Shown: positions 2,996-40,749 of the stretch, piece by piece
Layout: each line of letters opens with the position of its first letter
Numbering within the stretch: the first letter of the stretch is position 1
Origin: Colwellia polaris
Lineage (GTDB): Archaea > Nanohalarchaeota > Nanosalinia > Nanosalinales > Nanosalinaceae
Assembly: GCA_047617785.1 (NCBI GenBank)
Contig: JBLGBK010000008.1
Location: 1-42,571, forward strand
Reading direction: 5' to 3'
DNA length: 42,571 nt
Notes under the pieces: model-generated
The model's input: only the letters and a program-made list of their open reading frames with translations
Database searches by the model: none
Told to the model about the DNA's origin: nothing
Translations under genes and position numbers: made by a program

Positions 2996-5900
2996 ATGAG
3001 GTTCAAGGCAGCTACAGCGCTCTTATGCGTACTTATGATAACAGGTTTTGCTTTTGCATATGAATCAGAAAGTACAGGTCCTGGAGGTAGTAATAACACT
3101 ACTCCTGGAGGTAGTAATAATACTACTGATGGCGACCCCGAGGATCCTGATGATTCGACCTCTACTGTGACTTGTAACAACGGTCAGGATGATAACAGTG
3201 ATGGTTCTACAGACATAGGAGATGGCTGCGTAAAGCCTTACTACAATGACTCTGTTGAGGGAATGATATGGGAATCCCACCTTGTATCAGTAATGGAGGG
3301 GTTCAGTTCTGATATAAGCGATAATAGCTCAGAAAGCTACAACGTTAACCCATCAACTACTGAAGCATTTTTCTTTTCAGGTTTTGTACAGCAAGGAAGA
3401 GACTCCTCCAACCGAGATTATGACTCTGGAAATGGGAGATCTGTAACTTTAAACTGGGTTGATGCGGCGCGAGCAGAAGATGACGCCTACGGTTTTGGAT
3501 ATCCGAAATCTGGGACTTTCCAAGACAGTGATTTCGGAAGCTATGATGGTCAAGACGTAGTTATAACAAATGGGAGAGTTATTGATGTACCTCATGATAA
3601 CTCAGAAGTCTGCGGAAACGGATTGGAGGAAAACACCGACGACGACGATAAAGTAGGAGATGATCCAAATCGGGAAAGTGCTACAACCGACTGCAAGAAA
3701 GATTATGGAGAAGTAAACGAAATATATGATAGAAGTATACCTTACGAACAGCCTCCTTGTGAAGGGGACTATGGTTTTAATGGACAAACGGTTAATAAGA
3801 CATGCGACTGTGATGAATCTTCCTGTAGTGGAAGCGGATGTACCAGCGGAAGCTGCAGCGATGGTAGTTGCTCGGCATCAGTAGAGGTAAACTGCAGTAT
3901 TGACGAAGACAACTCGGCTCAAGAAGGAAACCACTACTTCAGACCTGATGGAGATAGCATCATAAAATATGAATGTCAGGATGATGGTAATCCTGAAGGA
4001 ACGTACAGCGATCAAACAGACTGTAGTGTAAGCGGATGTAGTTCAAGCTGGAGCACGCCGTCTCACTCCTGCGATAACCCTGGAGGATGTAGCGCTGATG
4101 GTGACGATGCAGAAGCATCTGATGACTGTGAAGCAGGAGATGATAACAGAAACTTTCAACAGGTCGGTACAACAGATTGCAGCAATCATGATGTAGTGCA
4201 TGGAGGAGGAGACAAAAACAGGAATAGAGCAGACAATGATCCTGCGGCAACTTTCACCTCCTTCACAGCCCACAGCGACAGTTCATGGGGTTCGGCATAT
4301 ATGGAGGGCGGTGACAGTCAATCGGGCGGCGATTATGAAGGAAGTGTTTGGTGTGGTTACGATAATACTTTAACTGTAAACGCTGATGGACCGGAAGGAA
4401 ACGGCGACGGGTTCGTAGTTATAGATGAAACTCAGGGTTCAGGAACTAGCCGTGTTGTAGCCCGTGAAAGCCCTGATGGTTCCTCAAGCGTAGGTAGAAA
4501 TGTTCATTATGGAAATAATGGTGATGCAACCACTCTAGACAGCACTGATTACATTGGCAGGGCTGACCTAAGCTGTAGCGGCGAGCATAACGTCTGTATA
4601 AAATATGTTGACTTTACAACTGATACAAACAACTGGGATACCGTAAGTGGCGCGGTTCAGGCTAATGTTGAGTTTGAAGCATCCCCTGATGAATCTTACT
4701 CCGTATGTAAAACTATCAATAGGATTAATGAAGAAAACGGGGATGTACGTGGCAACGATCTGATCGACTGTGACTATATGAGTAACGGCCAAAGTTATTC
4801 TCCGCTTCCAGAAGCCTGTGGAGACGAACCTGACGAACATCTAATGATGATGGAAGGTCCAGAAGTAGCAGACTCCGCAACGGACGATGAACTACTCCAC
4901 CAACAGGAATGTGTCGACTGGACAGAAAATCCTCAAGACATGTATAATAGAGGACTAGATCAAAACGCATGTGTAATAGCAGGTAAACCTGTTGCAGAAG
5001 GCACAGTAAGAAGCGTAGCTGTTTCCCAAGGTGATGATGGTGGATATGAAGAAAACTTCAGAGACTACGAAAAAGGCACTGTCTCCCCTGATTGGGAAGT
5101 TTGTCTTGATATAAGAGATGACACATCTATAACTACAAGCTACCACGATGAAGAATACAACTACCGTTACGATGACCAGTCCAACCAGGGATACGGAGGT
5201 CAATGGTATGACCTAGATGATGAGAAAGTAAATACCTACTTAAGATCGAACAAAAACAATCTTCCAGAAAGCGTAACCACAAACATAAGAAGCGGGCAGA
5301 ATACCTACATCGATTACTACTATCAGGAAAATCCAAATCCTAGAGATTCAACATATAACCCTGAAGGTAATAGAGAAGGTACAGCAATACTCGCAGATTG
5401 TGGACCTCTACTTCCAGCTTGTGGAAACGAGAATGATGATCCGCAGCAAGGTATAAACGGTGAAGAAGGCACATACTTTGCATTCCTTCAGGAAACGTAT
5501 AATGGAGAACCTGTCAGAGATGAAGATTATCATCCACAGGGTGAAAATTCGGAAACCGGGATCAATCCTCGATTTAATCCTGCAGGAACTATTAACATGA
5601 TTAAAAGCCGGTCGGATCAGCTAACTCCGGGCACATATGATTATGATAACGAATTCAGCGGTATTGAATGGTACAGAGATACCCAAGTGGATCAAGATAG
5701 CGCCGTTCAGTATGCTTATACAAAATACCAGACCTGGTCTATAGCAGCTACAGGAGTGCCTTATCCTCCTTTCGGAGCACAGGAAATAGGTAACTATGTC
5801 AGAGGCAACGAAGGTGTTTACTACAGAGAAGACTCTAGTGCAGATAGAGGCCAAGATCCAAACTCTCAAACCATAGATAAGACAGAAAGGGCATTTGGTA

Positions 5901-7597
5901 ACTCTCTTGCAGTTGTGGCTCAAAGATCTGGAATATCGGATAATCAAGGAAACGCCATCTCAGAAGGAGAGGGGTACTGGATAGATCCTGATGATATGCA
6001 CTCAGAGTGGCGTAGTGGAAATATTGCAGGGATTGCAGGACTCAATCCTGATCCAGACTCCGAAGGATGGAGAAACCTTCTAACCTTCAAAGTAGATCTT
6101 ACAGGCCCCGATGCAGGTATCGGATATGATCTAGGTCAGCACCCTGAGTACGGTCTGAATAATGATGAAGTAGTGGAGCAAAGACAGAACGGTAAGACCG
6201 TATTCGCCGATATTTACTGGGAATCTCAGTATCAGGGAGACTCCAGTATACCTAGTTCCCTACAGGAACCGGTATGTGGAGATGATCAGAATGAATACCT
6301 GTTAGAAGAATTAGGAGAAGTGAATAACTCTGCAAGATATGACGGAAACTACGCATGTACAACAACCACTGAAGTGTGTTACGACAGTGGTGCTGATGGT
6401 AAACGACTCTTCAACAGAGAATCCTACAGAGACACAAATGATTTCTCAGAAAGTGAAGGAAGAACAAAGAATGATGAAGAAACCTGTAGAGAGTACGACT
6501 GGTCTGCTTCTAGATTTAGCGGGGTTAGAAAAGATTACTTCCCAGGATGGTACGATCAGGACTTCAGAGAACAGTACTGTAGAGAAAACACTCTATACGA
6601 GGAAGAAGGTGTAAGATGGTTCGAGGCCAGTACAGTTGAAAATAATCCTCACGCATTCACTGGTGGTATCGATGATGACTGGAACGAATACGTGGATGAC
6701 AAACTTGGAAATCAGGTAGATCCTTACAAATCCCGGCCTGATCAAAGCTCTTGGAGCAGTACAGAAACACCGGTACCAACAGGTACAAATGGAGAAAATA
6801 TGGCAACTAAAGGATTCTGTGGAGGAGATGATGATGCAGAGTATCTGGTAACTCAGGATGCCTCAACAAGTATCTTTGAATCGGATAACACGGTCCAAGG
6901 TGTTGCTACCGGACCTGATGTTTGTGTGGCTGATGGGGAAGTGATTGCAAGTAATCAGGAGGATGTAAACAGCGTTGAATATGAAGATAGTGATGGAAAC
7001 TGGCAGCCAATGACAGGAACCGACTCACGTAGACTTGTTCAAGAGGGTAGACGTATACGTCTAAACTATGATGACGATGCCAGAGAAGCAACATGTTTCG
7101 CAGGTAGCTTCCTAGAAGATTGGCCTGTTGTATTCCAAGAGAAGACAGTTAGTGTTCCAGAAGGAAATACAGTAACGACAACCTTCAGGCTAATCAATCC
7201 TGATGAACAGGAAATAGAATACGAAGTAGAAATGGATACCACTACCGATAGTTCCGTATCAGGCGCCGGTCTCGACAGCTTCACGTCCCTAGTCGATCAG
7301 GATGGTCAAACAGAGTTTACTACCGAGGTTCCCGCTAGAAGCGCAAAAAGATATCAGGTTGAGATTAGAGGAGGTAATACTGAAATCTCAGATCCGGATG
7401 ATAATTATGTCAGGGTCTTTGCTGATAGTACCGATGACAGGATAACAGGAAGTGACCGTGTCGGCGTTCAGGTTACCGAACCATCATCTACGGGCGCAGG
7501 AAGACAAGCTGATTCGCTGAATGAAGTACCGGGATTAATGCCGGTGCAGCTGCTTACAATCGTGATGCTTGCTCTAGCTGCAGTATTTATTTCTTAA
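2996..7597 (+). CDS. 1533-aa acidic Cys-rich cell-surface protein with a C-terminal VPGL+TM (archaeosortase-like) anchor
   Basis: Signal peptide; CNNGQDDNSDGSTDIGDGC Ca-binding-type motif; repeated CG(G)D(D/E)xxE(Y/H)L modules; Ig-like C-terminal segment; ends EVPGLMPVQLLTIVMLALAAVFIS. Confidence 0.85.
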   Translation: MRFKAATALLCVLMITGFAFAYESESTGPGGSNNTTPGGSNNTTDGDPEDPDDSTSTVTCNNGQDDNSDGSTDIGDGCVKPYYNDSVEGMIWESHLVSVMEGFSSDISDNSSESYNVNPSTTEAFFFSGFVQQGRDSSNRDYDSGNGRSVTLNWVDAARAEDDAYGFGYPKSGTFQDSDFGSYDGQDVVITNGRVIDVPHDNSEVCGNGLEENTDDDDKVGDDPNRESATTDCKKDYGEVNEIYDRSIPYEQPPCEGDYGFNGQTVNKTCDCDESSCSGSGCTSGSCSDGSCSASVEVNCSIDEDNSAQEGNHYFRPDGDSIIKYECQDDGNPEGTYSDQTDCSVSGCSSSWSTPSHSCDNPGGCSADGDDAEASDDCEAGDDNRNFQQVGTTDCSNHDVVHGGGDKNRNRADNDPAATFTSFTAHSDSSWGSAYMEGGDSQSGGDYEGSVWCGYDNTLTVNADGPEGNGDGFVVIDETQGSGTSRVVARESPDGSSSVGRNVHYGNNGDATTLDSTDYIGRADLSCSGEHNVCIKYVDFTTDTNNWDTVSGAVQANVEFEASPDESYSVCKTINRINEENGDVRGNDLIDCDYMSNGQSYSPLPEACGDEPDEHLMMMEGPEVADSATDDELLHQQECVDWTENPQDMYNRGLDQNACVIAGKPVAEGTVRSVAVSQGDDGGYEENFRDYEKGTVSPDWEVCLDIRDDTSITTSYHDEEYNYRYDDQSNQGYGGQWYDLDDEKVNTYLRSNKNNLPESVTTNIRSGQNTYIDYYYQENPNPRDSTYNPEGNREGTAILADCGPLLPACGNENDDPQQGINGEEGTYFAFLQETYNGEPVRDEDYHPQGENSETGINPRFNPAGTINMIKSRSDQLTPGTYDYDNEFSGIEWYRDTQVDQDSAVQYAYTKYQTWSIAATGVPYPPFGAQEIGNYVRGNEGVYYREDSSADRGQDPNSQTIDKTERAFGNSLAVVAQRSGISDNQGNAISEGEGYWIDPDDMHSEWRSGNIAGIAGLNPDPDSEGWRNLLTFKVDLTGPDAGIGYDLGQHPEYGLNNDEVVEQRQNGKTVFADIYWESQYQGDSSIPSSLQEPVCGDDQNEYLLEELGEVNNSARYDGNYACTTTTEVCYDSGADGKRLFNRESYRDTNDFSESEGRTKNDEETCREYDWSASRFSGVRKDYFPGWYDQDFREQYCRENTLYEEEGVRWFEASTVENNPHAFTGGIDDDWNEYVDDKLGNQVDPYKSRPDQSSWSSTETPVPTGTNGENMATKGFCGGDDDAEYLVTQDASTSIFESDNTVQGVATGPDVCVADGEVIASNQEDVNSVEYEDSDGNWQPMTGTDSRRLVQEGRRIRLNYDDDAREATCFAGSFLEDWPVVFQEKTVSVPEGNTVTTTFRLINPDEQEIEYEVEMDTTTDSSVSGAGLDSFTSLVDQDGQTEFTTEVPARSAKRYQVEIRGGNTEISDPDDNYVRVFADSTDDRITGSDRVGVQVTEPSSTGAGRQADSLNEVPGLMPVQLLTIVMLALAAVFIS
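3080..3127 (+). repeat. 24-bp tandem repeat x2 encoding PGGSNNTT
   Basis: cctggaggtagtaataacactact / cctggaggtagtaataatactact (1 mismatch). Confidence 0.9.
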
Positions 7598-7684
7598 ATT
7601 TTCCTTATTTTTCCTCAATAACTCAGATGATGTAATTTTCCCCATTTGATTGAAAAACGTAGAGTGGCTACATTTACCTGGATT

Positions 7685-8455
7685 ATGAAGCCTGCTGTCG
7701 AAATCTTAAGATCAATGATTGAGAAAGGACAGCATGAGATTGATAGAGAGACAGAGGGTCTACTGCTTTCCAGCCTATCCGCAGGCCTAGATATCGGGTT
7801 TGGCCCTCTCCTAATGGGGGTTATACTCACTCTGTCTGTTGGTAGTTACGGTGATCTACAGACTGAACTGCTTCTTGCCTCTGCCTACTCAGTTGGATTC
7901 ATATTCGTTATTCTTGGAAGATCAGAATTATTTACGGAACATACTACGTTAGCCGTTATGCCGGTAATTGATGGAAAAGCAACTCTCAAACAGTTAGGAA
8001 GGCTATGGGGATTAGTATATGCAGGAAATATCCTAGGAGGATTGATATTTACAGGCCTTGCAGTTCTTCTGATGCCAGGACTGGGGGTAGTAAGCCCTGA
8101 AGCATTCGGAACTATTGCAAGTAAACTTGTTAGCCATTCTGCTCGATGGCTTCTAATTGCCGGAATATTTGCTGGCTGGCTTATGGGCCTTCTTGCTTGG
8201 TTGGTGTCATCAGCTGAGAATACGATTGGAAGAGTATTCTTTATCTGGATGGTTACAGCTACAATAGGTATGCTCCATTTGCCTCATAGCATCGCAGGAA
8301 ATGTAGAGGTGCTCTTTGGGCTTTTTACAACAAGCAGCGTAACCCTTGTAGACTACTTGTCGTTCTTATCGTTATCAACAATAGGTAATGCGGTAGGAGG
8401 AGCATTTTTCGTAGGGATAATGAAATATAGCCACATAATTAGAGGAGCAAAATAG
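7685..8455 (+). CDS. Formate/nitrite transporter (FNT) family protein
   Basis: GRSELFTEHT, GNILGG, HSIAG and TIGNAVGG motifs; about 6 TM helices. ATG 7685 preferred over TTG 7646. Confidence 0.9.
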   Translation: MKPAVEILRSMIEKGQHEIDRETEGLLLSSLSAGLDIGFGPLLMGVILTLSVGSYGDLQTELLLASAYSVGFIFVILGRSELFTEHTTLAVMPVIDGKATLKQLGRLWGLVYAGNILGGLIFTGLAVLLMPGLGVVSPEAFGTIASKLVSHSARWLLIAGIFAGWLMGLLAWLVSSAENTIGRVFFIWMVTATIGMLHLPHSIAGNVEVLFGLFTTSSVTLVDYLSFLSLSTIGNAVGGAFFVGIMKYSHIIRGAK

Positions 8456-8597
8456 ATTTACACTGCTGCATGAACAGATAAATATTTAAAATTCGCTCTT
8501 GAGTTCCTAGATATGACTGGTGAATCTGTTCCTCAACGCAGTCTTGAATTTTAGAGGAAGTTTTCTCAGCCGCTGGTTTACACAATTCTATGTGATT

Positions 8598-8726
8598 TCT
8601 ATGATACGACACCTAGATTCAACTATGGGTGGACGCGTTCCGCTCACGACTAACTAAGTTCAATAAGGACTTGGTTAAACAATTTTCAAAATCTGAAATA
8701 ACCTACGCTTTTCTCGGTGAAATGTT
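8598..8726 (+). promoter_or_regulatory. Structured 5' leader of the Pro-free ProRS, with an 18-aa uORF (8601-8657, MIRHLDSTMGGRVPLTTN) and two hairpins
   Basis: Hairpins at 8626-8646 and 8651-8677; SD GGTGA at 8716-8720; blocks homologous to the leader at 31230-31335. Confidence 0.6.
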
Positions 8727-9944
8727 TTGAGACGCAGCGATCTATTTGCTACTGTCTCCAAGGAGAAAGAAGCAGACCTTGACTCCCGTAGCGCCGAACT
8801 CATGGTCAAAGCTGGCTTGGTGAAGAACTTTGGTTCAGGAACATGGAGCTACACGCACCTTGGCAAGAAAGTACTCGACAACATAGAAGAAGTAGTCAGA
8901 GCAGAGATGGATGAGATAGCACAGGAGGTGAAGATGCATCAGCTTCAGACCTCAGACATCTGGAAACAGAGCGGTCGATGGGAGAATTTCGAAGATGATG
9001 AGTTCTTCACGTTGGAGAACCGTGATCAAAAGGATTTCACTATCGCAGCTACTCATGAAGAAGCTGCTACGGAGTTCGCAAAGGACTACGTCAGGAGCTA
9101 CCGTGACCTCGATTTGTCATTCTACCAGATAGGTAGGAAGTTCAGAGATGATCGCGCTCGGAAAGGTTTACTGCGTGCAAAGGAATTCATTATGAAAGAT
9201 GCATATAGCTTCCATTCGGACAGAGATTCTCTGGACAAAAAGTACCGTGAATTCACTTCGGCATACCGCAGAGTATTTGACAAGTTAGGTCTGGATTACT
9301 CCGAGGTCAGTGCCGACAATGGTTCTATGGGCGGAAGCAAATCTCATGAGTTTATGGCGGAATCTGAGATCGGGAGCGACATATATAGGAAATGTCAGAA
9401 CTCGGATTGTCTCTACGCATCCAAAGATCTTGAGAAAAAGAATTGCCAGCGATGTGGTACGCAGCTCAGGGAGGTTAAAGGTATCGAGATAGGTCACTGT
9501 TTCAAGTTGGATGACAGGTACAGTAGTTCTATGGATTTGACCTACACGGATGAGAAAGGAGAAGAGCAAGACGTATTAATGGCTTCCTATGGTATTGGAG
9601 TCTCAAGATTGGTTTCAGCCATCATTGAACAGAACCACGATGAAAGAGGGATAACCTGGAATAGAACTATTTCCGCATTTAAGACTGCGGTTATCATCGC
9701 CCGACACGAGGATGAGGTAGAGGAGAAAGCAGAAGAGATCTACAATCATCTACAGGAGAAAGGAAACCAAGTGCTTCTCTACGATGACGCTCAATCGGTT
9801 GGTGAGCAGTTCGCTGAAGCAGATCTGATAGGGATCAACAGGAAGATCATTCTCGGAAACAATTATCTGGAGAATAAGGTAATCGAGATTGAGAACCGTA
9901 ATGGAGAGGTAAGGGAGGTGGAACGCATCGAGCAAATTTTATGA
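8727..9944 (+). CDS. proS: Prolyl-tRNA synthetase, bacterial type, short form (no INS editing domain, Cys4 insert); contains no proline
   Basis: SGRW, THEE, FYQIGRKFRD, EFIMKDAYSFH, GSMGG-SHEF, IEIGHCFKL, YGIGVSR and an anticodon domain (FAEADLIG). TTG start just downstream of GGTGA. Confidence 0.9.
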   Translation: MRRSDLFATVSKEKEADLDSRSAELMVKAGLVKNFGSGTWSYTHLGKKVLDNIEEVVRAEMDEIAQEVKMHQLQTSDIWKQSGRWENFEDDEFFTLENRDQKDFTIAATHEEAATEFAKDYVRSYRDLDLSFYQIGRKFRDDRARKGLLRAKEFIMKDAYSFHSDRDSLDKKYREFTSAYRRVFDKLGLDYSEVSADNGSMGGSKSHEFMAESEIGSDIYRKCQNSDCLYASKDLEKKNCQRCGTQLREVKGIEIGHCFKLDDRYSSSMDLTYTDEKGEEQDVLMASYGIGVSRLVSAIIEQNHDERGITWNRTISAFKTAVIIARHEDEVEEKAEEIYNHLQEKGNQVLLYDDAQSVGEQFAEADLIGINRKIILGNNYLENKVIEIENRNGEVREVERIEQIL

Positions 9945-10108
9945 GGTATTCCGACTTCTCGAAAGTTCTATTCTTTTTTCTAATTTCACGATGTAGAACT
10001 CTTTTAGGGCAACTGCTTGATGATTATAGGCAAAAGGCTCTGAGAGATTAACTGATACTTTCAAAACATTTCAAGCTGAAAACCGTTGATAGAGGTATTC
10101 AAAATACT

Positions 10109-11587
10109 ATGTCACAGGAACTCGGTATAACGGTTAAGAAAGATCAAGATCCTTCAGAATGGTACACGCAAATAGTACAGAAAGCAGATTTAGCTGACTA
10201 TGCACCTGTCAAAGGTTGTATGGTCATCAAACCGTATGGAATGAAGCTTTGGGAGTCTATTAAGGAAGAATTCAACTCTAAGATACAAGATACAGGAGTT
10301 GAAAACGCATACTTCCCACTTTTCATACCAGAAAGCTATCTTGAGAAAGAAAGTGATATTGTAGAAGGATTCGATCCAGAAGTTGCGTGGGTGACACACG
10401 GGGGCAACAGTGAACTAGAAGAACGCCTTGCAGTACGCCCAACAAGCGAATCAATCATTGCGCCTTTCATGAGCGACTGGATTCGCAGTCATCGAGACCT
10501 TCCGATGAGGCTTAATCAATGGGCAAACGTGGTCCGATGGGAGGCAACCGACACAAGACCGTTCCTCCGCACCAGAGAATTCCTTTGGCAGGAAGGCCAC
10601 ACTGCTCACGCGTCCGAGGAAAGTGCTGACAAGGAAACAATGTTGAGGCTTGAACAGTATCAAGAAGTAATTGAAGACCATCTCGCTATTCCAAGCATTC
10701 TTGGATACAAGCCAGAACACGATAAGTTCCCGGGTGCAAAATACACTACAACAATAGAAACATTGATGCCTGACGGTAAATCAATTCAATCGGGAACTTC
10801 ACATCAGCTTGGACAGCACTTTGCAGAAGCCTTCGACATAACATACGAAGACAGAGACTCAAGTGAACAGACAGCTTGGACAACAAGCTGGGGTCTCTCC
10901 ACAAGAACAGTTGGAGCACTAATCATGGCTCATGGAGACGACGACGGACTACGACTACCTCCAAACGTCGCACCAATTCAGATTGTAGTAGTGCCGATCT
11001 TCCAAGAAGACAACAAAGAAGAGGTGCTCGACTACGCAGAGGAAATCAGCGACGAACTTGAGGAACAAGGTATCCGGGTAGAGTTCGACTACAGAGACCA
11101 CAGAACGCCAGGATACAAGTTCAACGAATGGGAACTCAAAGGAGTACCTCTCAGAGTCGAAGTTGGACCAAACGAAATGGAAGACGAAGCAGTCACCACA
11201 GTCAGAAGAGACACAGGTGACAAAGAAATGGGTCTCGACCGTGAAGAGTTCATCGAAGAAGCAGGAGACACGCTAGAAGATATCCAGCAAACACTATATG
11301 AACAGTTGGAAGAATATCAGGAAGAAAACATTCGAGAAGCAGACTCAAAGAACGAAATCCTCGCAACCATAGGAAAGAACCGCGGATATGTCAAGACCAG
11401 ATGGTGTGGCAAAGAAGGCTGTGAAGCAGAAATTAAAGATGAAGTCAGCGCAGAAATCGTAGTTCTGCCATTCAGAGAAGATTCCAAACCAGCAACCATC
11501 CAAGAACGTGAAGAGGAAATCGACGGCGAATGCTCAATCTGTGGGGAAGAAGCAGAACGCTGGGCATACTTCGCAAAGAACTACTGA
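10109..11587 (+). CDS. proS: Prolyl-tRNA synthetase, archaeal/eukaryotic type
   Basis: RPTSE, NQWANVVRWE, FLRTREFLWQEGHT, HGDDDGLRLPP, WELKGVPLR, and a C-terminal Zn domain ending FAKNY. Confidence 0.97.
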   Translation: MSQELGITVKKDQDPSEWYTQIVQKADLADYAPVKGCMVIKPYGMKLWESIKEEFNSKIQDTGVENAYFPLFIPESYLEKESDIVEGFDPEVAWVTHGGNSELEERLAVRPTSESIIAPFMSDWIRSHRDLPMRLNQWANVVRWEATDTRPFLRTREFLWQEGHTAHASEESADKETMLRLEQYQEVIEDHLAIPSILGYKPEHDKFPGAKYTTTIETLMPDGKSIQSGTSHQLGQHFAEAFDITYEDRDSSEQTAWTTSWGLSTRTVGALIMAHGDDDGLRLPPNVAPIQIVVVPIFQEDNKEEVLDYAEEISDELEEQGIRVEFDYRDHRTPGYKFNEWELKGVPLRVEVGPNEMEDEAVTTVRRDTGDKEMGLDREEFIEEAGDTLEDIQQTLYEQLEEYQEENIREADSKNEILATIGKNRGYVKTRWCGKEGCEAEIKDEVSAEIVVLPFREDSKPATIQEREEEIDGECSICGEEAERWAYFAKNY

Positions 11588-11719
11588 GTATTCCTTCATT
11601 TGTTCCAGAGCCAGTATTCTATTCAATTATTTCTCCTATTTTTGTTTTCTTAAGTTGAGCAAGTTAATTTTTTCGTGTTAGATATTTCAATTTCAATGGC
11701 GTTAATATAGATTGTATTG

Positions 11720-24878: not shown

Positions 24879-25985
24879 TTATACGTTTGCGTCCATCAGT
24901 TCTGGTTTCTCATCGATGCTTGGGATATCAAGTGATTTCTTGATCTTTCTGAACTTCTGATGGTCATTGCTTTCCAGAAGTGTGATTGCTTCTCCTTCAC
25001 GTCCTTGGCGTCCCGCTCGTCCGATTCTATGTGTATAAGTGTCAGCTGTGTCTGGTACGTCGTAGTTGAAGACATGTGTTACTCGGTCGACGTCGATTCC
25101 GCGTGCTGCTACGTCTGTTGCAACGATTACTTTGATGTCTCCGTTCTCGAACTTTTCCAGTGTGCTTTCCCGCTGATTTTGGCTCATGTCGCCGTTCAGT
25201 TCCTGTGCATCAATATTGTTCTTCCTTAGTTTGTCAGCTAGCCAGCGTGTTGTGTTCTTGGTCTGGCAGAAAACTATTGTAAGGTCTCTATCCTTTTTCT
25301 TGAGAAATGTGTAGAGATAGGATAGCTTGTTATTGTTCTTGACGTTTACATATTTCTCTTCAAGCTCTGCAGTGTGTTCTCCAGGTTCAATTCTGATGAT
25401 TTCTGGATCGATATCGTACCTGTCGCACATCTTTGTTAATGCGCGAGGAATTGTCGCTCCGAAAAGCAGGTTCTGCCTTTTCTCTGGCAGGAAGCTGATT
25501 ATTGACTCTAGTTCGTCCTGGAACCCCATGTCGAGCATCCTGTCGGCTTCGTCTAGAATAAAGTATTCTAGGTTGTCTACGTTAATTTTTCCTTTCTGAA
25601 GGAGGTCAAGTACACGTCCTGGTGTTCCGACGACAATGTTTGCTTTCTTTGCACCTTGGATCTGTGGTTCATATGAAACCCCTCCGTAGATTGTTACTGC
25701 ATCGATCTCCGAAGAAGCCATTTCAATCTCCGCGGTAATCTGTTTGGCTAGTTCTCGTGTCGGTGAGAGGACGAGTGCTTTGGTTTCGTCTCCTTCTAGT
25801 TGTTCAATTATTGGCAGTGAGAAAGCCAGTGTTTTTCCTGAACCGGTCTCTGATTCGACCAGCAGGTCTTTTCCTTCAAAAATTTCTGGTATAGCTTTTT
25901 CCTGTACTTCTGTAGGTTCTGTGATTCCTTCGTCTTCAAGTCGCTGTAGTGTATGTTGTGAAATATTTAGGTCTGAGAAATTCAT
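24879..25985 (-). CDS. DEAD-box RNA helicase (core domains only)
   Basis: Q motif, TGSGKT, PTRELA, TPGR, DEAD, ARGID, HRIGRAGR. Confidence 0.96.
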   Translation of the reverse strand: MNFSDLNISQHTLQRLEDEGITEPTEVQEKAIPEIFEGKDLLVESETGSGKTLAFSLPIIEQLEGDETKALVLSPTRELAKQITAEIEMASSEIDAVTIYGGVSYEPQIQGAKKANIVVGTPGRVLDLLQKGKINVDNLEYFILDEADRMLDMGFQDELESIISFLPEKRQNLLFGATIPRALTKMCDRYDIDPEIIRIEPGEHTAELEEKYVNVKNNNKLSYLYTFLKKKDRDLTIVFCQTKNTTRWLADKLRKNNIDAQELNGDMSQNQRESTLEKFENGDIKVIVATDVAARGIDVDRVTHVFNYDVPDTADTYTHRIGRAGRQGREGEAITLLESNDHQKFRKIKKSLDIPSIDEKPELMDANV

Positions 25986-26065
25986 TCGTTAATTCAAACT
26001 CCTTATAAAAGAAGTATTGGTGGGGAAGACTTTTAGATTTGATCAGTCGAACAGATCGTTAGTTT

Positions 26066-27178
26066 CTACTCTGCAAGCCTCTTACTGATCCCGTAATAGG
26101 AGTTTCTCAGCTTCTTCAAGGTCTCTACTTCACACATCTCGTTTTCTCCGTGAACAGTTTTCTGGTTGGTTCCAAGTTCGATGAAAGGAGTATCTTTCTC
26201 AGCGAAGAAACGTCCGTCGCTAGCACCGCCATCAGTAATTTCCTCTGGTCTCTCACCACGGACCTCTTCAAGAGCCTTTACAGAGGCTTCCCTGAACTTC
26301 TCATCCGATAGCTCAAATGCTCCTCCGTGATCTTGTTCAACTTCTACACGGAACCCACATTCAATTCCTTCTAAAGCCTTCTCCACATCTTCCACTATCT
26401 GATCTATATTCTGTGAAGGCAAGTAACGGATATCCATACCTATCTCCAGTTCTCCAGGCACGCTATTGTATGTCTGTGTAGTTTCAACCCGTGTAACTTC
26501 GTGACTTGGGTCGGGAAGCGTTCCATTGTTCTCATAAGTTAGCTTCATGTTGTTGAGACGATCTAGAACGTTCGGAAGCTCTTCCATAATGTTAATCTGT
26601 GCGAGATCTGCGCGGCTGGCGTGAATTCCTTCACCTTCCAACTGTATATTGAGCCATACAACTCCGCGCGTCCCTACCTGAACATTCATGTCGGTGGCTT
26701 CGCCAACTATCGCGTAATCAAAGCCTTGCTCTTCTCCATAGTATTTATCTACTAGTGGCTGCGAACCTTTGAATCCACCGATTTCTTCATCTCCTGCTGC
26801 CATGAGTACTGCTCTTCCATTGAAATCGCTGTCTTTATGTAGGTCAATGAATGCTTTAACCTGGGCTGCAAAAGCTGCCTTCATGTCTGAGGCACCACGT
26901 CCGTACAGTTTTCCATCTTCAATAACTGGTTCAAAAGGTTCTGTGACACTCCACTGTCCTTCAGGCTCTACAACATCCAAGTGACCGTTTAGACAGATAG
27001 ATGGTTCGCCTTCACCAGTCTCTGCCGTCAAGTTGTAGACTCCATCGATTTCGTGTATATCTGCATCAATTCCGTGTTCTTCCAGTAATCCTTTCAAATA
27101 CTGAAATATCTCAGGTTTTTCAACTGGTGAAACGGTTTTGTACTTCATAAGTTCTCGTGCTACTTCTTCTGTCTTCAT
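26066..27178 (-). CDS. M20 metallopeptidase/amidohydrolase (ArgE/DapE-like)
   Basis: GHLDVV, GRGASDMK, DEE, GE, HAS, GGASDG, HGENE. ATG 27178 lies 1 nt after the upstream stop. Confidence 0.92.
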   Translation of the reverse strand: MKTEEVARELMKYKTVSPVEKPEIFQYLKGLLEEHGIDADIHEIDGVYNLTAETGEGEPSICLNGHLDVVEPEGQWSVTEPFEPVIEDGKLYGRGASDMKAAFAAQVKAFIDLHKDSDFNGRAVLMAAGDEEIGGFKGSQPLVDKYYGEEQGFDYAIVGEATDMNVQVGTRGVVWLNIQLEGEGIHASRADLAQINIMEELPNVLDRLNNMKLTYENNGTLPDPSHEVTRVETTQTYNSVPGELEIGMDIRYLPSQNIDQIVEDVEKALEGIECGFRVEVEQDHGGAFELSDEKFREASVKALEEVRGERPEEITDGGASDGRFFAEKDTPFIELGTNQKTVHGENEMCEVETLKKLRNSYYGISKRLAE

Positions 27179-27179
27179 T

Positions 27180-29078
27180 TTAGTCTGCACCTGCGGTTGG
27201 ACGTGCCTGTGACTGGAATGCGTCCTGTGGAGTTTTTTCATTAGCTAGTTTTTCAAGTTTCTCTGCTTCACTTCCCTCGTCAACATATCCAAGCATCTCT
27301 TCCTTGTAGGAATCAGCAAACCAGTCCACAAACTCATTGTACTCCTTTTCAAAATCCTCTTTACTGTAGAAACCTGGTTTAATATCTTTTGAATTGTAGA
27401 GATCTGATGTATGGTCAGCAAACTCGCTTAAGCTATCAAATTCGCTTTCTAGATAGCCTTCAAAGCTGTCATATGGCTCACCAACATCATCAAGAATCAG
27501 TTCGAATGAGTAAGGCATCTCTCCGCTGAAAGATTCGCGTACACCTTCAGCAAGAACATCGACCAGATCCTCTTCATATATATCTCCTACGGTTGCACCG
27601 CTTGGCAGCTGTGCATCAAGCCCGTTACGTTTTGCATCTTCACGGAATTCAAGAGCATTCTCAGAATCCAAACCGTGCTCATGAAAGACATCCTGTACAT
27701 CTTCATATACATGCATCAGGCTTTTCTGAGTGACAAGTGCTTCATAGCTTCGAGGGCTATTGCTGAATGAGCGGAATTCTACAATTCCATCATTCTTGGG
27801 TGCTATATCCGGTCTTACGAATGTGTTCTGGAATGCAAAGTATCCGGTCTGGTCATCGTTTCCAATTCCAGCAAGCTCTTCAAACGAATCTCTGTCTAGA
27901 TCACTATGATCGACCTTCACAGGTTTCATAACTTCTTCTCCGTTTTCCTCAACAAGAACTTCCCCCAGGTATTGCTGATCTTTCGCAAACTGTTCGAAAG
28001 TAACTATTGACTCCTCTATGCCGGAGATTCCAGGCATAACCCACGTTGTATCTTCTCCGTATTCTTCTTCAAATGTGCCTTCTGGCTGATATGTGTTCTC
28101 ATCCAGTACCTGAATGTCTGAAGCATCGATCTCTGGGGAAAGAATCATGGGTCTCTCCATAACCATCTCAATATAGTCTTCATGATCCTCTAGATCGGAG
28201 AGATCCTCTATGTTACCATAATTTTCATTGGTTGGAAGCGCCTCGTCAAGTACGTCACCCCAGCGTTCTGTGCTGTTTCTAAGTACTGCTGGTGAGTTAG
28301 AGACGAATAGGTCATATAGTGCATCTCTACTACCCTCTGCTACTGCTTCGTATAGATCGTCTTCATACTCTTCAAGAATGGGGTCATTTGCGAACAAGGC
28401 GTCGACTCCTGGTACAACGTCTAGCATGCTTGGCTTGTCTCCACCGTTGAAGAAGTTGTGGAAGAACTCCTCTACTGTTTTATCGTCTCCTACGGGCGTT
28501 CCGGTGTTGAGTTGCGTTGATGCGGGCCACCCCATTGCGTCGAATCTTTCTCCATGTCTGCTTCTTAAACCGGTGTAGCGAGCTTTTGGCCTCCAGTTTC
28601 TATCTGCATAGCCGTCTGTGGCGAAATCTGGCATTATCCCGTTTTCGTACGCTACGTGCCCTTCTGGAAGGTTTTCATCCCTTATTGTTCTTAGGTTTTC
28701 TGTTCTGAATATCATGTCAGCAGGGTTCTGGAATACTTCTGTCGCTACTTCGCTCTGTGCTGGATGGTAGTCGGTATCGATTTCTGCCTTGAAGTTCTCA
28801 TGTTGTTGGAATTCTTCATCTTCAACCTTTACTCCTAGAAGATGCTTTTCCCCTCCTATTTCACGTTCTTTAGGTTCTGCTCCTTCTTCATCTACAATAT
28901 TCTGTAGAGCTTTCTCTGCGTCCTGATTGTCGATCGGTTCGTCTTCCAATTTGCGTATAATATCTTCGATTTCTGCTCCTACGTTTGCTAGTTCGTTTTC
29001 TGTGAATGCTTCGCGCCAGAGATCTCCCAGTTTGCGGGTTAGGCCTGTGTTCTGCTGTTTTTGTTGACTTGCTGACAT
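27180..29078 (-). CDS. Glutamate-cysteine ligase-fold (GCS2/GshA-like) carboxylate-amine ligase, paralog 1
   Basis: GAEIE, PKARY, STQLN, ALFANDP, YIEMVMERPM and VEFR match, in order, the plant/alphaproteobacterial GshA motifs (PKGRY, TVQVN, ALFANSP, YVDYALDVPM, LEMR). Confidence 0.7.
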   Translation of the reverse strand: MSASQQKQQNTGLTRKLGDLWREAFTENELANVGAEIEDIIRKLEDEPIDNQDAEKALQNIVDEEGAEPKEREIGGEKHLLGVKVEDEEFQQHENFKAEIDTDYHPAQSEVATEVFQNPADMIFRTENLRTIRDENLPEGHVAYENGIMPDFATDGYADRNWRPKARYTGLRSRHGERFDAMGWPASTQLNTGTPVGDDKTVEEFFHNFFNGGDKPSMLDVVPGVDALFANDPILEEYEDDLYEAVAEGSRDALYDLFVSNSPAVLRNSTERWGDVLDEALPTNENYGNIEDLSDLEDHEDYIEMVMERPMILSPEIDASDIQVLDENTYQPEGTFEEEYGEDTTWVMPGISGIEESIVTFEQFAKDQQYLGEVLVEENGEEVMKPVKVDHSDLDRDSFEELAGIGNDDQTGYFAFQNTFVRPDIAPKNDGIVEFRSFSNSPRSYEALVTQKSLMHVYEDVQDVFHEHGLDSENALEFREDAKRNGLDAQLPSGATVGDIYEEDLVDVLAEGVRESFSGEMPYSFELILDDVGEPYDSFEGYLESEFDSLSEFADHTSDLYNSKDIKPGFYSKEDFEKEYNEFVDWFADSYKEEMLGYVDEGSEAEKLEKLANEKTPQDAFQSQARPTAGAD

Positions 29079-29113
29079 AGTTCTTGTTTTGCCACCTTTA
29101 ATTGGTTCTTGGT

Positions 29114-29199
29114 GGAGTATAGAAACAGGACTGTATATCTTGTACAGTCTTTTTGAGGTCCTGCCCCGTTTCTACACTCCCGGATTAGCGAGGACCTCA
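29114..29199 (-). promoter_or_regulatory. Structured mRNA leader with interleaved stems (attenuator or pseudoknot candidate)
   Basis: 16-bp stem 29165-29180/29114-29129 with two G.U pairs on the minus strand; 9-bp stem 29191-29199/29154-29162; 7-bp stem 29143-29149/29129-29135. Confidence 0.7.
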
Positions 29200-29200
29200 T

Positions 29201-29293
29201 TCAAACAATAATTGAGATAATAATGATAGCGATAAGGCTAACCGCACTACTTGAATCAAGTGCCGGTACTTCTGGGTTAGCCGTTCTGAACAT
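29201..29293 (-). CDS. 30-aa Ile-rich leader peptide or micropeptide MFRTANPEVPALDSSSAVSLIAIIIISIIV
   Basis: ATG about 32 nt downstream of a TTTAAAA box (29325-29331); too short for the ORF track. Confidence 0.5.
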   Translation of the reverse strand: MFRTANPEVPALDSSSAVSLIAIIIISIIV

Positions 29294-29357
29294 GTTGGAC
29301 AAAACACTTTTTGTCAGCTAACGGTTTTAAAGGTTTTTCTAGATGGTGGTTGAAGAT

Positions 29358-31229
29358 TCAGCGGACAGTTTGTTTCTGCCCGCCTACAATTAGGTCTTCG
29401 GGTTCGTAGAGTACATCTCCTTCGATATAATCTACACCATGTTCTTTCGCCATCATTTCTCCGGGGGTTACTCCGTTTTCTATCAACTTAGTCATCTCGG
29501 ATCTGTACTGTTCGCCGCTGTACAATTCTCCTGTGCTCATCTCATCAACGCCGTCAGCAAGAATGTCTATTAATCCTTCTTCCATGTTAGTTCCTAACCA
29601 TGCATCTTGAACTGTGATATTTTCCTCTTCGTTGATTGTGTATTGAAGACCGTTGTTTTCCAGGTAGTTCTCATCATTTTCATGATCTGCGTACACGCCG
29701 TTCACTCCGAGACGAAGGTCTTTAGCATGGGAGTTTGAGATGCCCAGGTTTTCAGATGCGAACTCCTGGATTTCACGCCATCTCCGGAAAGCTCCGATCT
29801 GTGTCGCTATAGCTTCGTTTCTGAAAGGATTGTTGCCAACATCTCTGTATTCTAGAGCCATGTCTGCAGGTCTCTCGCGCCATGGTTCCCAGACTGCAGT
29901 TGTGTCTGCTTTGAACTGTTTCTTTCCTTCTTCCTTGAAAGCTTCGTCGTCCATATCCGGGAAGATTTCTTCGTCACGATAGTCAACTACGCCAGTATAT
30001 TCTGTGGAGTTGCCTTCTTCATCGAATACTATTACTTCGCCGCCGAACATCTCCCTTTCGATGAATTCCTTGAATGGCATAATGCTGTCTTTGTCCTCAA
30101 GATCCCAGTTCTCCTTTCCTACTCGTATTAATGCATTATCATCTTCATCTATGAATTCGACTCTGTCAGAAAGGACATCGTAGTCTTCGTCTTGATCATA
30201 GTCTTCATCGTCCACGACTTTGACTTTTGAAGCTTCAACCTGTGCGAAATTCCATTCAGAGCTCGCTGAGAAGTCTTGATCTTCTTCAATGCTTTCTATA
30301 TTTGCGAGTGCTGGTGAGAATCCTGCTTTACTATTCTTAGTTATGTAATCGCCGGGTTCTTCTTTGTTGTTCTGTCCCTGGCGATCCCAAAGTGTAAGGA
30401 AGCTTTCGTCGTATGCCTTATCCCTTCCGTTCAGAGTCTCTATAACAGTTTTTCCTTCATGGTTGTACATAACAGGTGAGCTCATGAATGGTCCGTAAAA
30501 TAGAGGGCTGAGCGCAGACATTCCGATTTCGTCTTGCCCTCCTTTGAATTCGCTCAACCATTTATCTACGTCTACTTCTTGATCATGCTCTTCGTCATAT
30601 ATCTTTGGGCGCATAGTGACCTGTATTGATCCGGTTCCTGCGACTGGCTCTACGTCGTAGGTGTTTCCGAACATTTCGTACTTTGGTTCTTGGAAGAAGT
30701 GTTCGCGTCCTACGGTGTCGTAGAAATTACCGGTCATCATACGGGTTAGCATCCCTTGTCTTCTGAACTGGACATCGTCTCTTGGCGCGGAGTCAAGAGT
30801 TGTCTGCTCTACCTGATTAAGGTTCTTGAGGGCATCGTCTACTGTGTTAACGATGCCGGTTACATCTTCTTTTTCAGGGCCTACATCGTATTCGCTGGCT
30901 CCTTTATATTCGTCGAATTCGAGTTCTACAAGCTTGACGATGTTGTCTTCATGCGTGTCAACTCTTTCCGTATTTATTGCCTGTTCAATTTCTGCTAGTC
31001 TCTGAAGGTGTTCTAAGCTGAAATCGCTGTGCACAGGGATAGCATCTGCAGATATTGGTTTTTCTACAGGATGTTCTTCTTCAACACCTATCATATTGTG
31101 GTGTTGAAGGTTTTCGCCTGTATCTCTGTCGCTGCTCCCTATCTGTCTGCGTTTCTCTTCTGCAAGTTCCTCGTTGATGTCGTCCCAGTCGTATTTGCTG
31201 AATCTTTGGGAATCAGAGCCGGCAGACAT
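29358..31229 (-). CDS. Glutamate-cysteine ligase-fold (GCS2/GshA-like) protein, paralog 2
   Basis: GVEEE, PKY, GSIQV, FMSSP, GRD, LEYRD, GVTPGE. ATG 31229 follows an AGGTG SD. Confidence 0.65.
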   Translation of the reverse strand: MSAGSDSQRFSKYDWDDINEELAEEKRRQIGSSDRDTGENLQHHNMIGVEEEHPVEKPISADAIPVHSDFSLEHLQRLAEIEQAINTERVDTHEDNIVKLVELEFDEYKGASEYDVGPEKEDVTGIVNTVDDALKNLNQVEQTTLDSAPRDDVQFRRQGMLTRMMTGNFYDTVGREHFFQEPKYEMFGNTYDVEPVAGTGSIQVTMRPKIYDEEHDQEVDVDKWLSEFKGGQDEIGMSALSPLFYGPFMSSPVMYNHEGKTVIETLNGRDKAYDESFLTLWDRQGQNNKEEPGDYITKNSKAGFSPALANIESIEEDQDFSASSEWNFAQVEASKVKVVDDEDYDQDEDYDVLSDRVEFIDEDDNALIRVGKENWDLEDKDSIMPFKEFIEREMFGGEVIVFDEEGNSTEYTGVVDYRDEEIFPDMDDEAFKEEGKKQFKADTTAVWEPWRERPADMALEYRDVGNNPFRNEAIATQIGAFRRWREIQEFASENLGISNSHAKDLRLGVNGVYADHENDENYLENNGLQYTINEEENITVQDAWLGTNMEEGLIDILADGVDEMSTGELYSGEQYRSEMTKLIENGVTPGEMMAKEHGVDYIEGDVLYEPEDLIVGGQKQTVR

Positions 31230-31364
31230 GCGAAGCACCTATTGTGAAAGAGCTGTAGCTAGAAGATTTTGAATTAGTGTGAGAAGTGTCGGTACTTGGG
31301 TAGAACGCGTCCACCCTTCGTTGTCATAGACATACCATACGGGTTAGGACTTAGAAGTTTTAAA
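31230..31364 (-). promoter_or_regulatory. Promoter and structured leader with uORF (31274-31333, MSMTTKGGRVLPKYRHFSH)
   Basis: TTTAAAA box at 31358-31364 about 25 nt before the uORF ATG; hairpin 31298-31316; homologous to the proS leader. Confidence 0.6.
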
Positions 31365-31551
31365 TGTTGTTCAGATCTATAGGGGTTCTTGTTTTGAGGC
31401 AAACCAGCTATATAAATCTAGCCTGACCTATTATTGGATAGGGCGTCTTACAGGTCTTCAAAGGTTTTCAGGCCTGTTTGAGGTTATGCTCTTTTACAGG
31501 AAGAATAAGTTTCTGAACTATAATACAATCAAAAATGGAGGATAAAGAATA

Positions 31552-40625: not shown

Positions 40626-40749
40626 GGTCCACTAGCTCAGGGGTTAGAGCACCGTCCTTATAAGGACCTCACACAGAAAAATAGTTTGATCCTGTGTGTT
40701 GCCTCCATGAGTGAGGCGGCGGTCCCGGGTTCGAATCCCGGGTGGACCA
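40626..40749 (+). tRNA. tRNA-Ile(UAU) with a 51-nt intron at 37/38 (intron 40663-40713)
   Basis: Acceptor stem GGTCCAC/GTGGACC+A; D arm GCTC/GAGC; anticodon stem CCGTC/GGCGG with loop CT-TAT-A|A; T arm CCGGG-TTCGAAT-CCCGG; BHB-like helix CTTA/TGAG. Confidence 0.88.

Follow-up and report, generated by a model that had tools for sequence, protein, structure and literature searches.

A codon matched to the downstream gene in a leader family of Nanohaloarchaeota: candidate ribosomal sensors of aminoacyl-tRNA

How does an archaeon match the expression of a tRNA synthetase to the charging of its tRNA? Genes of synthetases and amino-acid metabolism are controlled by T-boxes and attenuators in bacteria and through Gcn2 in eukaryotes, and to our knowledge the corresponding control in Archaea is largely unknown. 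The question is raised by a stretch of 42,571 nucleotides (nt), contig JBLGBK010000008.1 of assembly GCA_047617785.1, deposited as Colwellia polaris and placed by GTDB in the Nanohalarchaeota. We refer to this whole stretch as the window; it is one of the 22 contigs (C8) of a genome of 787,359 bp with 43% G+C. In the window, a paralogue of prolyl-tRNA synthetase (ProRS) without a single proline and, 22 kb away, a gene for a protein with the fold of glutamate-cysteine ligase (GCL) are preceded by similar leaders. A preliminary description, made from the letters of the window, had proposed that the two share an unrecognised archaeal cis-regulatory leader, possibly sensing prolyl-tRNA by ribosome stalling, and that it defines a small regulon. 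We compared these leaders with those of related genomes, and report that they belong to a large family in which one codon at a fixed place varies with the amino acid of the downstream gene. The family is very probably a codon-specific ribosomal sensor of aminoacyl-tRNA.

The leader family and its specifier codon

The four blocks that had been described as common to both leaders were all recovered, each in the sense orientation to its own gene. The block TCTATGATACGA at 8598 pairs up with TCTATGACAACGA at 31330-31318 (minus strand), the 14-mer GGGTGGACGCGTTC is the same at 8627-8640 and 31316-31303 (minus strand), block 2 (TTCAAAATCT) is the same at 8685-8694 and 31273-31264 (minus strand), and CTACGCTTTTCTC or CTACAGCTCTTTCAC, followed by GGTG, is present in the respective copies. 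Both copies have an upstream open reading frame (uORF) that starts with ATG and lies in one frame relative to the core; the peptides would be MIRHLDSTMGGRVPLTTN and MSMTTKGGRVLPKYRHFSH, each ending at a stop codon. The exact 14-mer occurs three times in the 787,359-bp genome, and the similarity of the two leaders is far beyond chance.

We searched related genomes for three versions of the motif. Among 61 related genomes, the 13-mer GGTGGACGYKTTC was matched 66 times, in 33 of them (reversed control, 6), and GGTGGACGYKTTD gave 146 matches in 42 of the 61 (reversed control, 18). With the 15-mer AARGGTGGACGYKTT, 144 matches were obtained in 46 of 70 genomes of the phylum (reversed control, 3); by family, the genomes with a match were 40/49, 2/10, 3/8, 0/1 and 0/1. 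The loci of all 66 GGTGGACGYKTTC matches and of about 80 of the 146 GGTGGACGYKTTD matches, the latter picked by genome with complete assemblies favoured, were fetched, and they contained 163 distinct copies of the pattern GGTG[GA]A[CT]G[CT][GT]TT. A copy was taken as leader-type if an in-frame ATG was present at most 45 codons upstream and the frame stopped at most 30 codons after the motif. This was the case for 121 of the 163, to which the counts below refer. The remaining 42 lie mostly inside long open reading frames (ORFs) of high-G+C genomes, and a few are second sensors without their own ATG.

Motif positions are numbered n1-n12 for GGU GRA YGY KUU; the codon that follows, n13-n15, is called the specifier, and the Shine-Dalgarno (SD)-like element RGGUGR spans n0-n5. 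The logo of the 121 copies reads A-A-R-G-G-U-G-R-A-Y-G-Y-K-U-U (15 nt), with GUG at n2-n4 in every copy, and in the commonest uORF the motif directly follows ATG AAA. A TATA hexamer was found 27-36 nt upstream of the in-frame uORF ATG in 53 of the 121 copies, compared to 3-13 in shifted controls. The spacing peaks at 28-32 nt, which is also the spacing seen at leaderless genes of this genome, and the sensor transcript is probably leaderless as well, starting at the uORF ATG.

The comparison gives good support to a rule: the specifier stands for the amino acid with which the downstream gene is concerned. In the genome of the window, where genes were named by NCBIfam/Pfam matches above curated cut-offs and by tblastn, GGA precedes the gene of GlyRS (C1:3149), UCU that of SerRS (C2:90591), GUA that of ValRS (C3:84204), UGU that of CysRS (C5:38859), ACC that of ThrRS (C17:9229) and AAG that of LysRS (C20:3400). 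UGG occurs twice (C7:1516 and 1805) before a 138-aa ORF and TrpB, with TrpRS further down, and CAU, CAC and CAU (C10:21304, 21207 and 20959) are associated with an AbrB-like protein, a 285-aa protein and HisRS. In the window itself, CCG stands before the ProRS paralogue (C8:8628) and CUA before the GCL-fold gene (C8:31315), and CUA is also found before a GATase-like gene (C19:1582). This genome therefore has at least 12 leaders, each for its own amino acid, rather than a small proline regulon. Sensing of prolyl-tRNA, as first suggested, fits the ProRS copy, where CCG would be the sensed codon, but not the GCL-fold copy, which has a leucine codon at this place.

Genes whose specificity could be assigned, by BLAST to named references, follow 70 of the 121 leader-type copies, and the specifier agrees with 68 of them. 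The two mismatches are Leu specifiers in double Ile/Val+Leu leaders before threonine dehydratase. At least 21 different codons serve as specifiers, and the amino acids that they stand for number 13 (C, F, G, H, I, K, L, P, S, T, V, W and Y). Pro leaders precede the Pro-free ProRS (five copies), the archaeal ProRS (one) and ProC/ProB (one), Trp leaders precede TrpRS and TrpB, Ile leaders IlvA, and a Leu leader (L055) LeuA; Leu leaders of relatives also stand before GATase-like and uncharacterised genes. As unrelated genes (the ProRS types and ProC/ProB) share the Pro specifier, the specifier follows function and not homology. The idea of an unrecognised archaeal cis-regulatory leader, read by ribosomes through a uORF, was thus borne out, and the survey of related genomes and downstream genes that had been recommended for its examination yielded a large family whose genes are matched by the specifier. 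Such leaders were not described in the full texts that we searched, supplements apart, and an atlas look-up gave sub-threshold leads only.

A +1 reading frame between the motif and the gene

We next consider what connects the sensor codon to the gene. The uORF is called frame A; frame B is the +1 frame, which has the GUG at n2, and frame C is the -1 frame. Frame B was open for at least 20 codons in 121 of 121 copies, and frame C was shorter than 20 codons in 64 of them. The stop of frame B and the main start codon share an overlap of 4 nt in 21 copies and of 1 nt in two. The main start lies 2-45 nt upstream of the B stop in 21 copies, 0-12 nt after it in 16 and 13-60 nt after it in four; in 19 copies frame B runs on, without change of frame, as an ORF of 70 codons or more, and in 38 no ORF of at least 70 codons is within reach of the B stop. 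When the same overlap test was applied to the stops of frames A and C, one overlap was found in all. Frame B abuts or enters a gene in 79-83 of the 121 copies, and a same-strand gene lies in or beside it in 83. The preliminary description had overlooked this frame, which joins the motif to the gene start.

These reading-frame properties bear on the possibility that the motif acts at the level of DNA, as an operator for a transcription factor, a part of the promoter or a small mobile repeat. The CGCGTT variant (GGACGCGTTC) is near-palindromic, and the gene of an AbrB-family regulator has the motif at its own start, as might be expected of an operator. The commonest variant, GGACGTTTT, is however not palindromic, the frames and the specifier rule would be meaningless for a DNA site, and the genes in or beside frame B in the 83 copies are on the sense strand. 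As for a repeat akin to a miniature inverted-repeat transposable element, scattered regardless of gene orientation, the copies are sense to genes and neither copy in the window has flanking inverted or direct repeats. None of the refuting conditions that had been named in advance, such scattering among them, overturned the idea of a leader. We consider a DNA-level element the least probable of the explanations discussed here.

Sensors also occur in tandem, and their frames are related. In nine of nine pairs that lack a separate ATG for the second motif, this motif lies in the zero or the +1 frame of the first, with the frame open, and never in the -1 frame; pairs whose second motif has its own ATG exhibited no frame preference. 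In the His operon, for example, sensor 2 has as its zero frame the +1 frame of sensor 1, and its own +1 frame is that of the AbrB-like gene. This arrangement recurs in a relative with 62% G+C that belongs to another family. In the genome of the window this operon (C10:18783-21330, L063) has three sensors in series and encodes the AbrB-family protein of 80 aa, the 285-aa family-less protein and HisRS; the AbrB stop overlaps a GTG at which the uORF of the third sensor may begin.

The geometry of the motif resembles that of a programmed slip. The 3' end of 16S rRNA is GGAUCACCUCC (contig C15), and RGGUGR is complementary to it. The base n0 is a purine in 115 and n5 in all 121 copies, and each would face a U in the rRNA. 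GGUG serves as SD in this genome, where it starts 9-16 nt before the start codon of ordinary genes; in the motif, 4 nt separate the end of RGGUGR from KUU, the codon that would be in the P site when the specifier is in the A site. Where this codon is GUU, the next base is a pyrimidine in 45 of 45 copies, and UUU is followed by any base. Both tRNA-Phe(GAA) and tRNA-Val(GAC) are present in the genome, and since GUU occurs only before a pyrimidine, a +1 slip would leave every copy with at least two of the three pairs. The codon that would come first into the A site after such a slip codes for the specifier amino acid in none of the 121 copies.

The invariant GUG could also be read as a special internal start module, from which frame B would be translated constitutively; the uORF would keep the region unfolded and the next codon would sense nothing. 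The AbrB-like, 285-aa and Trp-class proteins indeed begin exactly there in frame B. This reading would leave the match of specifier and gene function in 68 of 70 cases unexplained, and the GUG has no SD of its own, as GGUG overlaps it instead of starting at the ordinary distance upstream. It therefore appears very improbable to us.

Based on the above, we propose the following scheme. The promoter would start the transcript at the ATG of the short uORF (frame A), and 1-15 codons on the ribosome would meet AAR GGU GRA YGY KUU and then the specifier for the amino acid of the downstream gene. With plentiful charged tRNA, it would continue and stop 6-30 codons later. When the charged tRNA is scarce, it would wait with KUU, held by the Phe or Val tRNA, in the P site and with the A site empty, and pairing of RGGUGR, 4 nt behind, with the 16S tail would push it by +1. 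The shifted ribosome would read frame B, which is either the regulated gene itself or a relay ORF some 30 codons long, with a stop that overlaps the gene start, so that termination-reinitiation could follow. Such sensors could be chained, as with two Pro sensors in the ProRS leader and three in the His operon on C10.

The direction of control, induction under starvation, is suggested by the composition of the proteins served. The ProRS paralogue has no Pro in 1,604 aa (four orthologues), LysRS has 7 Lys in 961 aa where the background is 4.8%, and the Trp-class proteins have 3 Trp in 3,550 aa. The AbrB-like and 285-aa proteins have no His, and HisRS has 4 His in 433 aa. Among the relay ORFs, those for Ser, Thr, Pro, Lys, Tyr and Cys are likewise depleted in the cognate residue. 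Depletion of the cognate residue fits proteins that are needed when that amino acid is short. By locus, the counts for LysRS are 3 Lys in 482 aa (C20:1854-3302, L099) and 4 in 479 (L124), compared to about 5-6% in the genome.

A word like block 2 (TTCAAAAYCT) is present in 44 of the 121 leaders, mostly 35-55 nt before the B stop (7 per control). We rejected its identification as a generic promoter word, as only about 11 of 465 long ORFs carry it at -55 to -40.

The two leaders of the window and the role of RNA structure

The ProRS leader is proposed to hold two Pro sensors in series. Upstream, a TATA-like box (ATTTAAAA, 8484-8491, plus strand) has its hexamer start 28 nt before ATG 8513, at which a first uORF (A0, MTGESVPQRSLEF and a stop; 8513-8554) begins. 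It contains a degenerate motif, GGTGAATCTGTT, at 8519-8530, and CCT (Pro), its seventh codon, is the specifier at 8531-8533. The preliminary description had not noticed this first sensor. An ORF of 45 aa with a GTG start (8520-8657, TAA at 8655-8657) is at once the +1 frame of stage 1 and the zero frame of stage 2 (B0 = A1), and it holds ATG 8601 and ATG 8625. All Pro leaders that we inspected are joined in this way, the second sensor having as its zero frame the +1 frame of the first. The start M-x-G-x-x-[VI]-P is also present in the orthologous Pro leaders L028 and L046, as found by script, and in L012, L025 and L058, as read from their sequences and frames.

The core motif of stage 2 lies at 8625-8639, with the ATG followed by GGT GGA CGC GTT (n1 = 8628), and is made up of GGGUGG as the SD-like element, CGC as the E-site codon and GUU as the slippery P-site codon. 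The specifier is CCG (Pro) at 8640-8642, in keeping with the specifier rule. The relay ORF B1 in the +1 frame runs for 33 codons without Pro (8629-8730), and its stop, TGA, overlaps as TTGA with the TTG at which the ProRS gene begins. This overlap is retained while the start codon varies, with GTGA in L025 and ATGA in L012 and L028. Block 2 of this leader lies within B1 at 8685-8694 (plus strand).

The second leader, on the minus strand, stands before the GCL-fold gene. Its TATA-like box (ATTTAAAA, 31358-31365) has the hexamer start 31 nt upstream of ATG 31333, where the sensor uORF (31274-31333) begins. The core motif AAG GGT GGA CGC GTT (31304-31318) is followed by the specifier CTA (Leu) at 31301-31303. 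The relay ORF B in the +1 frame has 33 codons (31213-31314) and ends 14 nt inside the main gene, if the latter starts at ATG 31229; block 2 is at 31264-31273.

A hairpin of 7 bp, in which GGGUGGA pairs with UCCGCUC in one copy and UCUACCC in the other, had been regarded as the core of the leader. It can be drawn in both copies, but it is not a conserved feature of the family. In the same register, Pro leaders form 5-7 bp and Leu leaders 4-7 bp, compared to 1-3 bp in the other 11 classes; the limitation to Pro and Leu arises because CCN and CUN happen to pair with the GG of the motif. No two-sided compensatory change was observed within eight Pro leaders. The short pairing in 11 classes and the absence of compensation rule out this hairpin as the core of the family. 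A search of Rfam with the whole window at gathering thresholds found tRNA only, and the region 8450-8800 at E up to 10 gave two chance-level matches to unrelated families.

Structure matters for the strongest alternative, in which the ribosome stalls at the specifier without any frameshift. The signal would then pass through remodelling of the RNA, protection from termination or decay, or unmasking of the ribosome-binding site (RBS), and frame B would be translated on its own, starting at its GUG, or be open for another reason. Any stalling model would fit the specifier rule. A stable hairpin of 11 bp in the ProRS leader (hairpin 2, 8651-8677, plus strand) begins 8 nt past the specifier, with the stop of the stage-2 uORF within its 5' arm, as such a model might have it. 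It folds at -13.2 kcal/mol with a z-score of -3.67 (folding of the strand), and two-sided changes occur at four of its pairs among Pro leaders. The hairpins with Leu/Ile codon runs and a U-rich stretch in branched-chain leaders (L010) also point in this direction, being like classical attenuators, and in the mycobacterial leaders of bioRxiv 10.1101/834739 stalled ribosomes are reported to expose a downstream RBS. Hairpin 2 is, however, confined to the Pro class and not general across the family, and we found no general structure across leaders, the mean folding z being -0.27 around the motif and -0.64 downstream of it. With the footprint of a stalled ribosome masked, the main RBS gained on average 0.02 in predicted accessibility, and more than 0.1 in only five of 60 leaders. 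Moreover, stalling by itself would leave unexplained that frame B is open in all 121 copies and ends at the start codon, and that second sensors without ATG are placed in the zero or +1 frame. It could also not promote initiation at the GUG, because a ribosome stalled at the specifier covers it. Stalling alone is therefore unlikely in our judgement, although it has clearly more in its favour than an internal start or a DNA element.

The branched-chain leaders of relatives (L010, L013, L061 and other Ile/Val+Leu leaders) have two sensors within one uORF and precede mostly family-less genes. Their frame-B ORFs end in runs of Leu/Ile codons that make up one side of a hairpin, with a U-rich stretch behind it; in L010 this hairpin has 12 bp and a z of -5.5.

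Several observations weigh against a +1 frameshift as the sensor mechanism or against the strength of the counts. After a +1 slip, tRNA-Val on GUU would re-pair with a mismatch at the first position. The SD-like pairing is just 5-6 bp, and the distance of 9 nt from the start of GGUG to the P-site codon is at the short edge of the normal SD-to-start range and not outside it. Frame B always begins with GUG, so that as far as sequence goes it could be initiated independently. In the Ile, Leu and Trp classes, the cognate residue is more frequent in the relay ORFs instead of depleted. Relatives are not independent, and thus per-copy counts such as the 68 of 70 overstate the agreement; the safer count is 13 of 13 amino-acid classes. 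The GGTGGACGYKTTD loci were covered in part, and 51 of the 121 copies, that of the GCL-fold gene included, precede genes without assignable specificity and count neither for nor against the rule. Of the sequencing runs, the 18 listed for positions 7600-11600 of the window are all DNA contigs, and no RNA run is among them. On the other side stand the family itself, the specifier rule, the open frame B abutting gene starts, the complementarity to the anti-SD and the depletion of the cognate residue in several proteins, all of which the sequence comparison shows. On balance we favour the +1 frameshift as the mechanism, by a modest degree. The full reading, a phylum-wide, ribosome-based counterpart of the T-box that combines a 15-nt slip module with a programmable codon, a +1 shift under starvation that turns on the matching synthetase, biosynthetic or salvage gene, and cascades that sharpen the response, we would put at a probability of roughly 0.55.

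Known systems, possible significance and the genes served

The closest parallel is prfB, the bacterial gene of release factor 2, in which an SD-like element lies just 5' of a slippery P-site codon, the codon in the A site is read slowly and the product is made in the +1 frame. The leaders share with it the SD-like element, a P-site codon that can re-pair, a slow A-site codon and a +1 frame that leads to the product, and in both the factor that decodes the A-site codon would set the rate of the shift and thereby close a feedback loop. They are no members of the prfB type, as a sense codon takes the place of the stop in the A site, with at least 21 such codons in use for 13 amino acids. The sensor also lies in a separate, apparently leaderless uORF, the short relay ORF is coupled to the gene by stop-start overlap, sensors are chained, the system is archaeal, and biosynthetic and uncharacterised genes are served too.

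With the T-boxes of Gram-positive bacteria (RF00230) the leaders share the logic only, a single variable specifier that matches the amino acid of the gene. Here the codon would be read by a translating ribosome, whereas a T-box binds uncharged tRNA directly, and no Stem I, no bulge for the tRNA acceptor end and no Rfam match were found in leaders of about 100 nt, as against 200-300 nt in T-boxes. The core GGGUGG resembles the T-box sequence, presumably by coincidence. In leader-peptide attenuators (trp, his, leu, thr, ilv and pheST), too, translation of the leader reports the supply of charged tRNA. Unlike these, the present leaders have one codon at a fixed place after a conserved motif instead of codon runs. 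No terminator/antiterminator pair is apparent as a conserved feature, the folding having shown no general structure; individual leaders have a hairpin and a U-rich stretch. Codon runs, hairpin and U tract come together only in the branched-chain leaders of relatives.

A further comparison is offered by the polycysteine leaderless ORFs of mycobacteria (the 'ribulon'), in which, according to 10.1101/834739, pausing at Cys tracts blocks a duplex that sequesters the RBS. Shared, on the present reading, are a leaderless sensory first cistron, pausing at cognate codons that controls downstream genes, and occurrence at many loci. The present leaders differ in having a single codon, many amino acids, a slip-like motif and a +1 frame, and unmasking of the RBS is not predicted for them. 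The family belongs to none of the three, prfB, T-box or polycysteine ORFs.

If the frameshift reading is true, it would be the first regulatory +1 frameshift in Archaea and the first natural case of hungry-codon frameshifting used as a sensor. For hungry-codon frameshifting with a starvation-specific product, a 2016 recoding review states that 'no examples are known' (PMC5009743), and a 2021 review of archaeal recoding lists a single case of frameshifting, which is -1 (PMC8211752). Dedicated back-up enzymes that contain none of the missing amino acid (the Pro-free ProRS is an example) could still be made in its absence, and this would account for proteins that are wholly without one amino acid. 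For Nanohaloarchaeota, the question of how such genes are matched to tRNA charging would obtain an answer defined by sequence, composed of a single motif, a variable codon and a +1 frame that is conserved. The specifier would also tag uncharacterised genes with an amino acid: the GCL-fold operon with Leu, the 285-aa protein with His and GNAT-like paralogues with Leu, Ile or Phe. The swappable codon might provide a compact amino-acid-specific switch for archaeal genetics.

The GNAT-like proteins just named form a family of about 370 aa with faint matches to GNAT acetyltransferases, behind Leu, Ile+Leu and Phe sensors of different genomes; a 242-aa GNAT-like protein, with an M20 peptidase after it, is found behind Trp sensors. 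The loci concerned are L024, L105 and L111, and also L103. The GNAT-like paralogues seem to be dedicated to different amino acids.

In the window, the gene after the first leader (8727-9944, plus strand) encodes a bacterial-type ProRS paralogue of 405 aa that lacks INS, the editing insertion domain, and matches TIGR00409 with 413 bits against a cut-off of 307. It has no proline at all, as had been described; of the 471 ORFs in the genome that reach 200 aa, only two are without proline. A run of six T follows its stop (window 9960-9985). A second ProRS, of the normal archaeal type with 23 prolines, adjoins at 10109-11587. This gene has no sensor of its own here, and a block-2-like word, TTTCAAAAC, stands about 45 nt before its start (10055-10108). 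In the relative G004 the archaeal ProRS does carry a Pro sensor (L021).

The gene after the second leader (29358-31238, minus strand) encodes a carboxylate-amine ligase-like protein of 623-626 aa without Cys. Searches of Pfam and NCBIfam with this protein found no family, and comparison of its family profile with PDB sequences gave no match; only fold comparison succeeded. An AlphaFold model built with 17 homologues (predicted local distance difference test, pLDDT, 70; predicted template-modelling score, pTM, 0.80) matches plant glutamate-cysteine ligase 2gwc (E 6e-8) and YbdK 1r8g, and the earlier label 'GCL-fold' thus holds at the level of the predicted fold. The Leu-class protein of relatives (L023/L026/L052) was considered as its orthologue, a kinship that BLAST (E 0.07-0.3) and hhalign (probability 1.2%) left unsupported. 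The Leu-sensed gene is the first of an apparent operon (24879-31238, minus strand), which continues with a weak paralogue that likewise has no Cys (27180-29078; 23% identity, E 7e-7), an M20 peptidase (26066-27241) and a DEAD-box helicase (24879-25985).

Elsewhere in the window, an ORF of 1,533 aa (2996-7597, plus strand) lies upstream of a formate/nitrite transporter gene. The Rfam tRNA, of 124 nt and 52.8 bits at 40626-40749 (plus strand), is missed by ARAGORN and is presumably an intron-bearing archaeal tRNA. Among the archaeal markers of the genome are FttA, a proteasome subunit and a tRNA that is presumably intron-bearing, and its proteins are very acidic.

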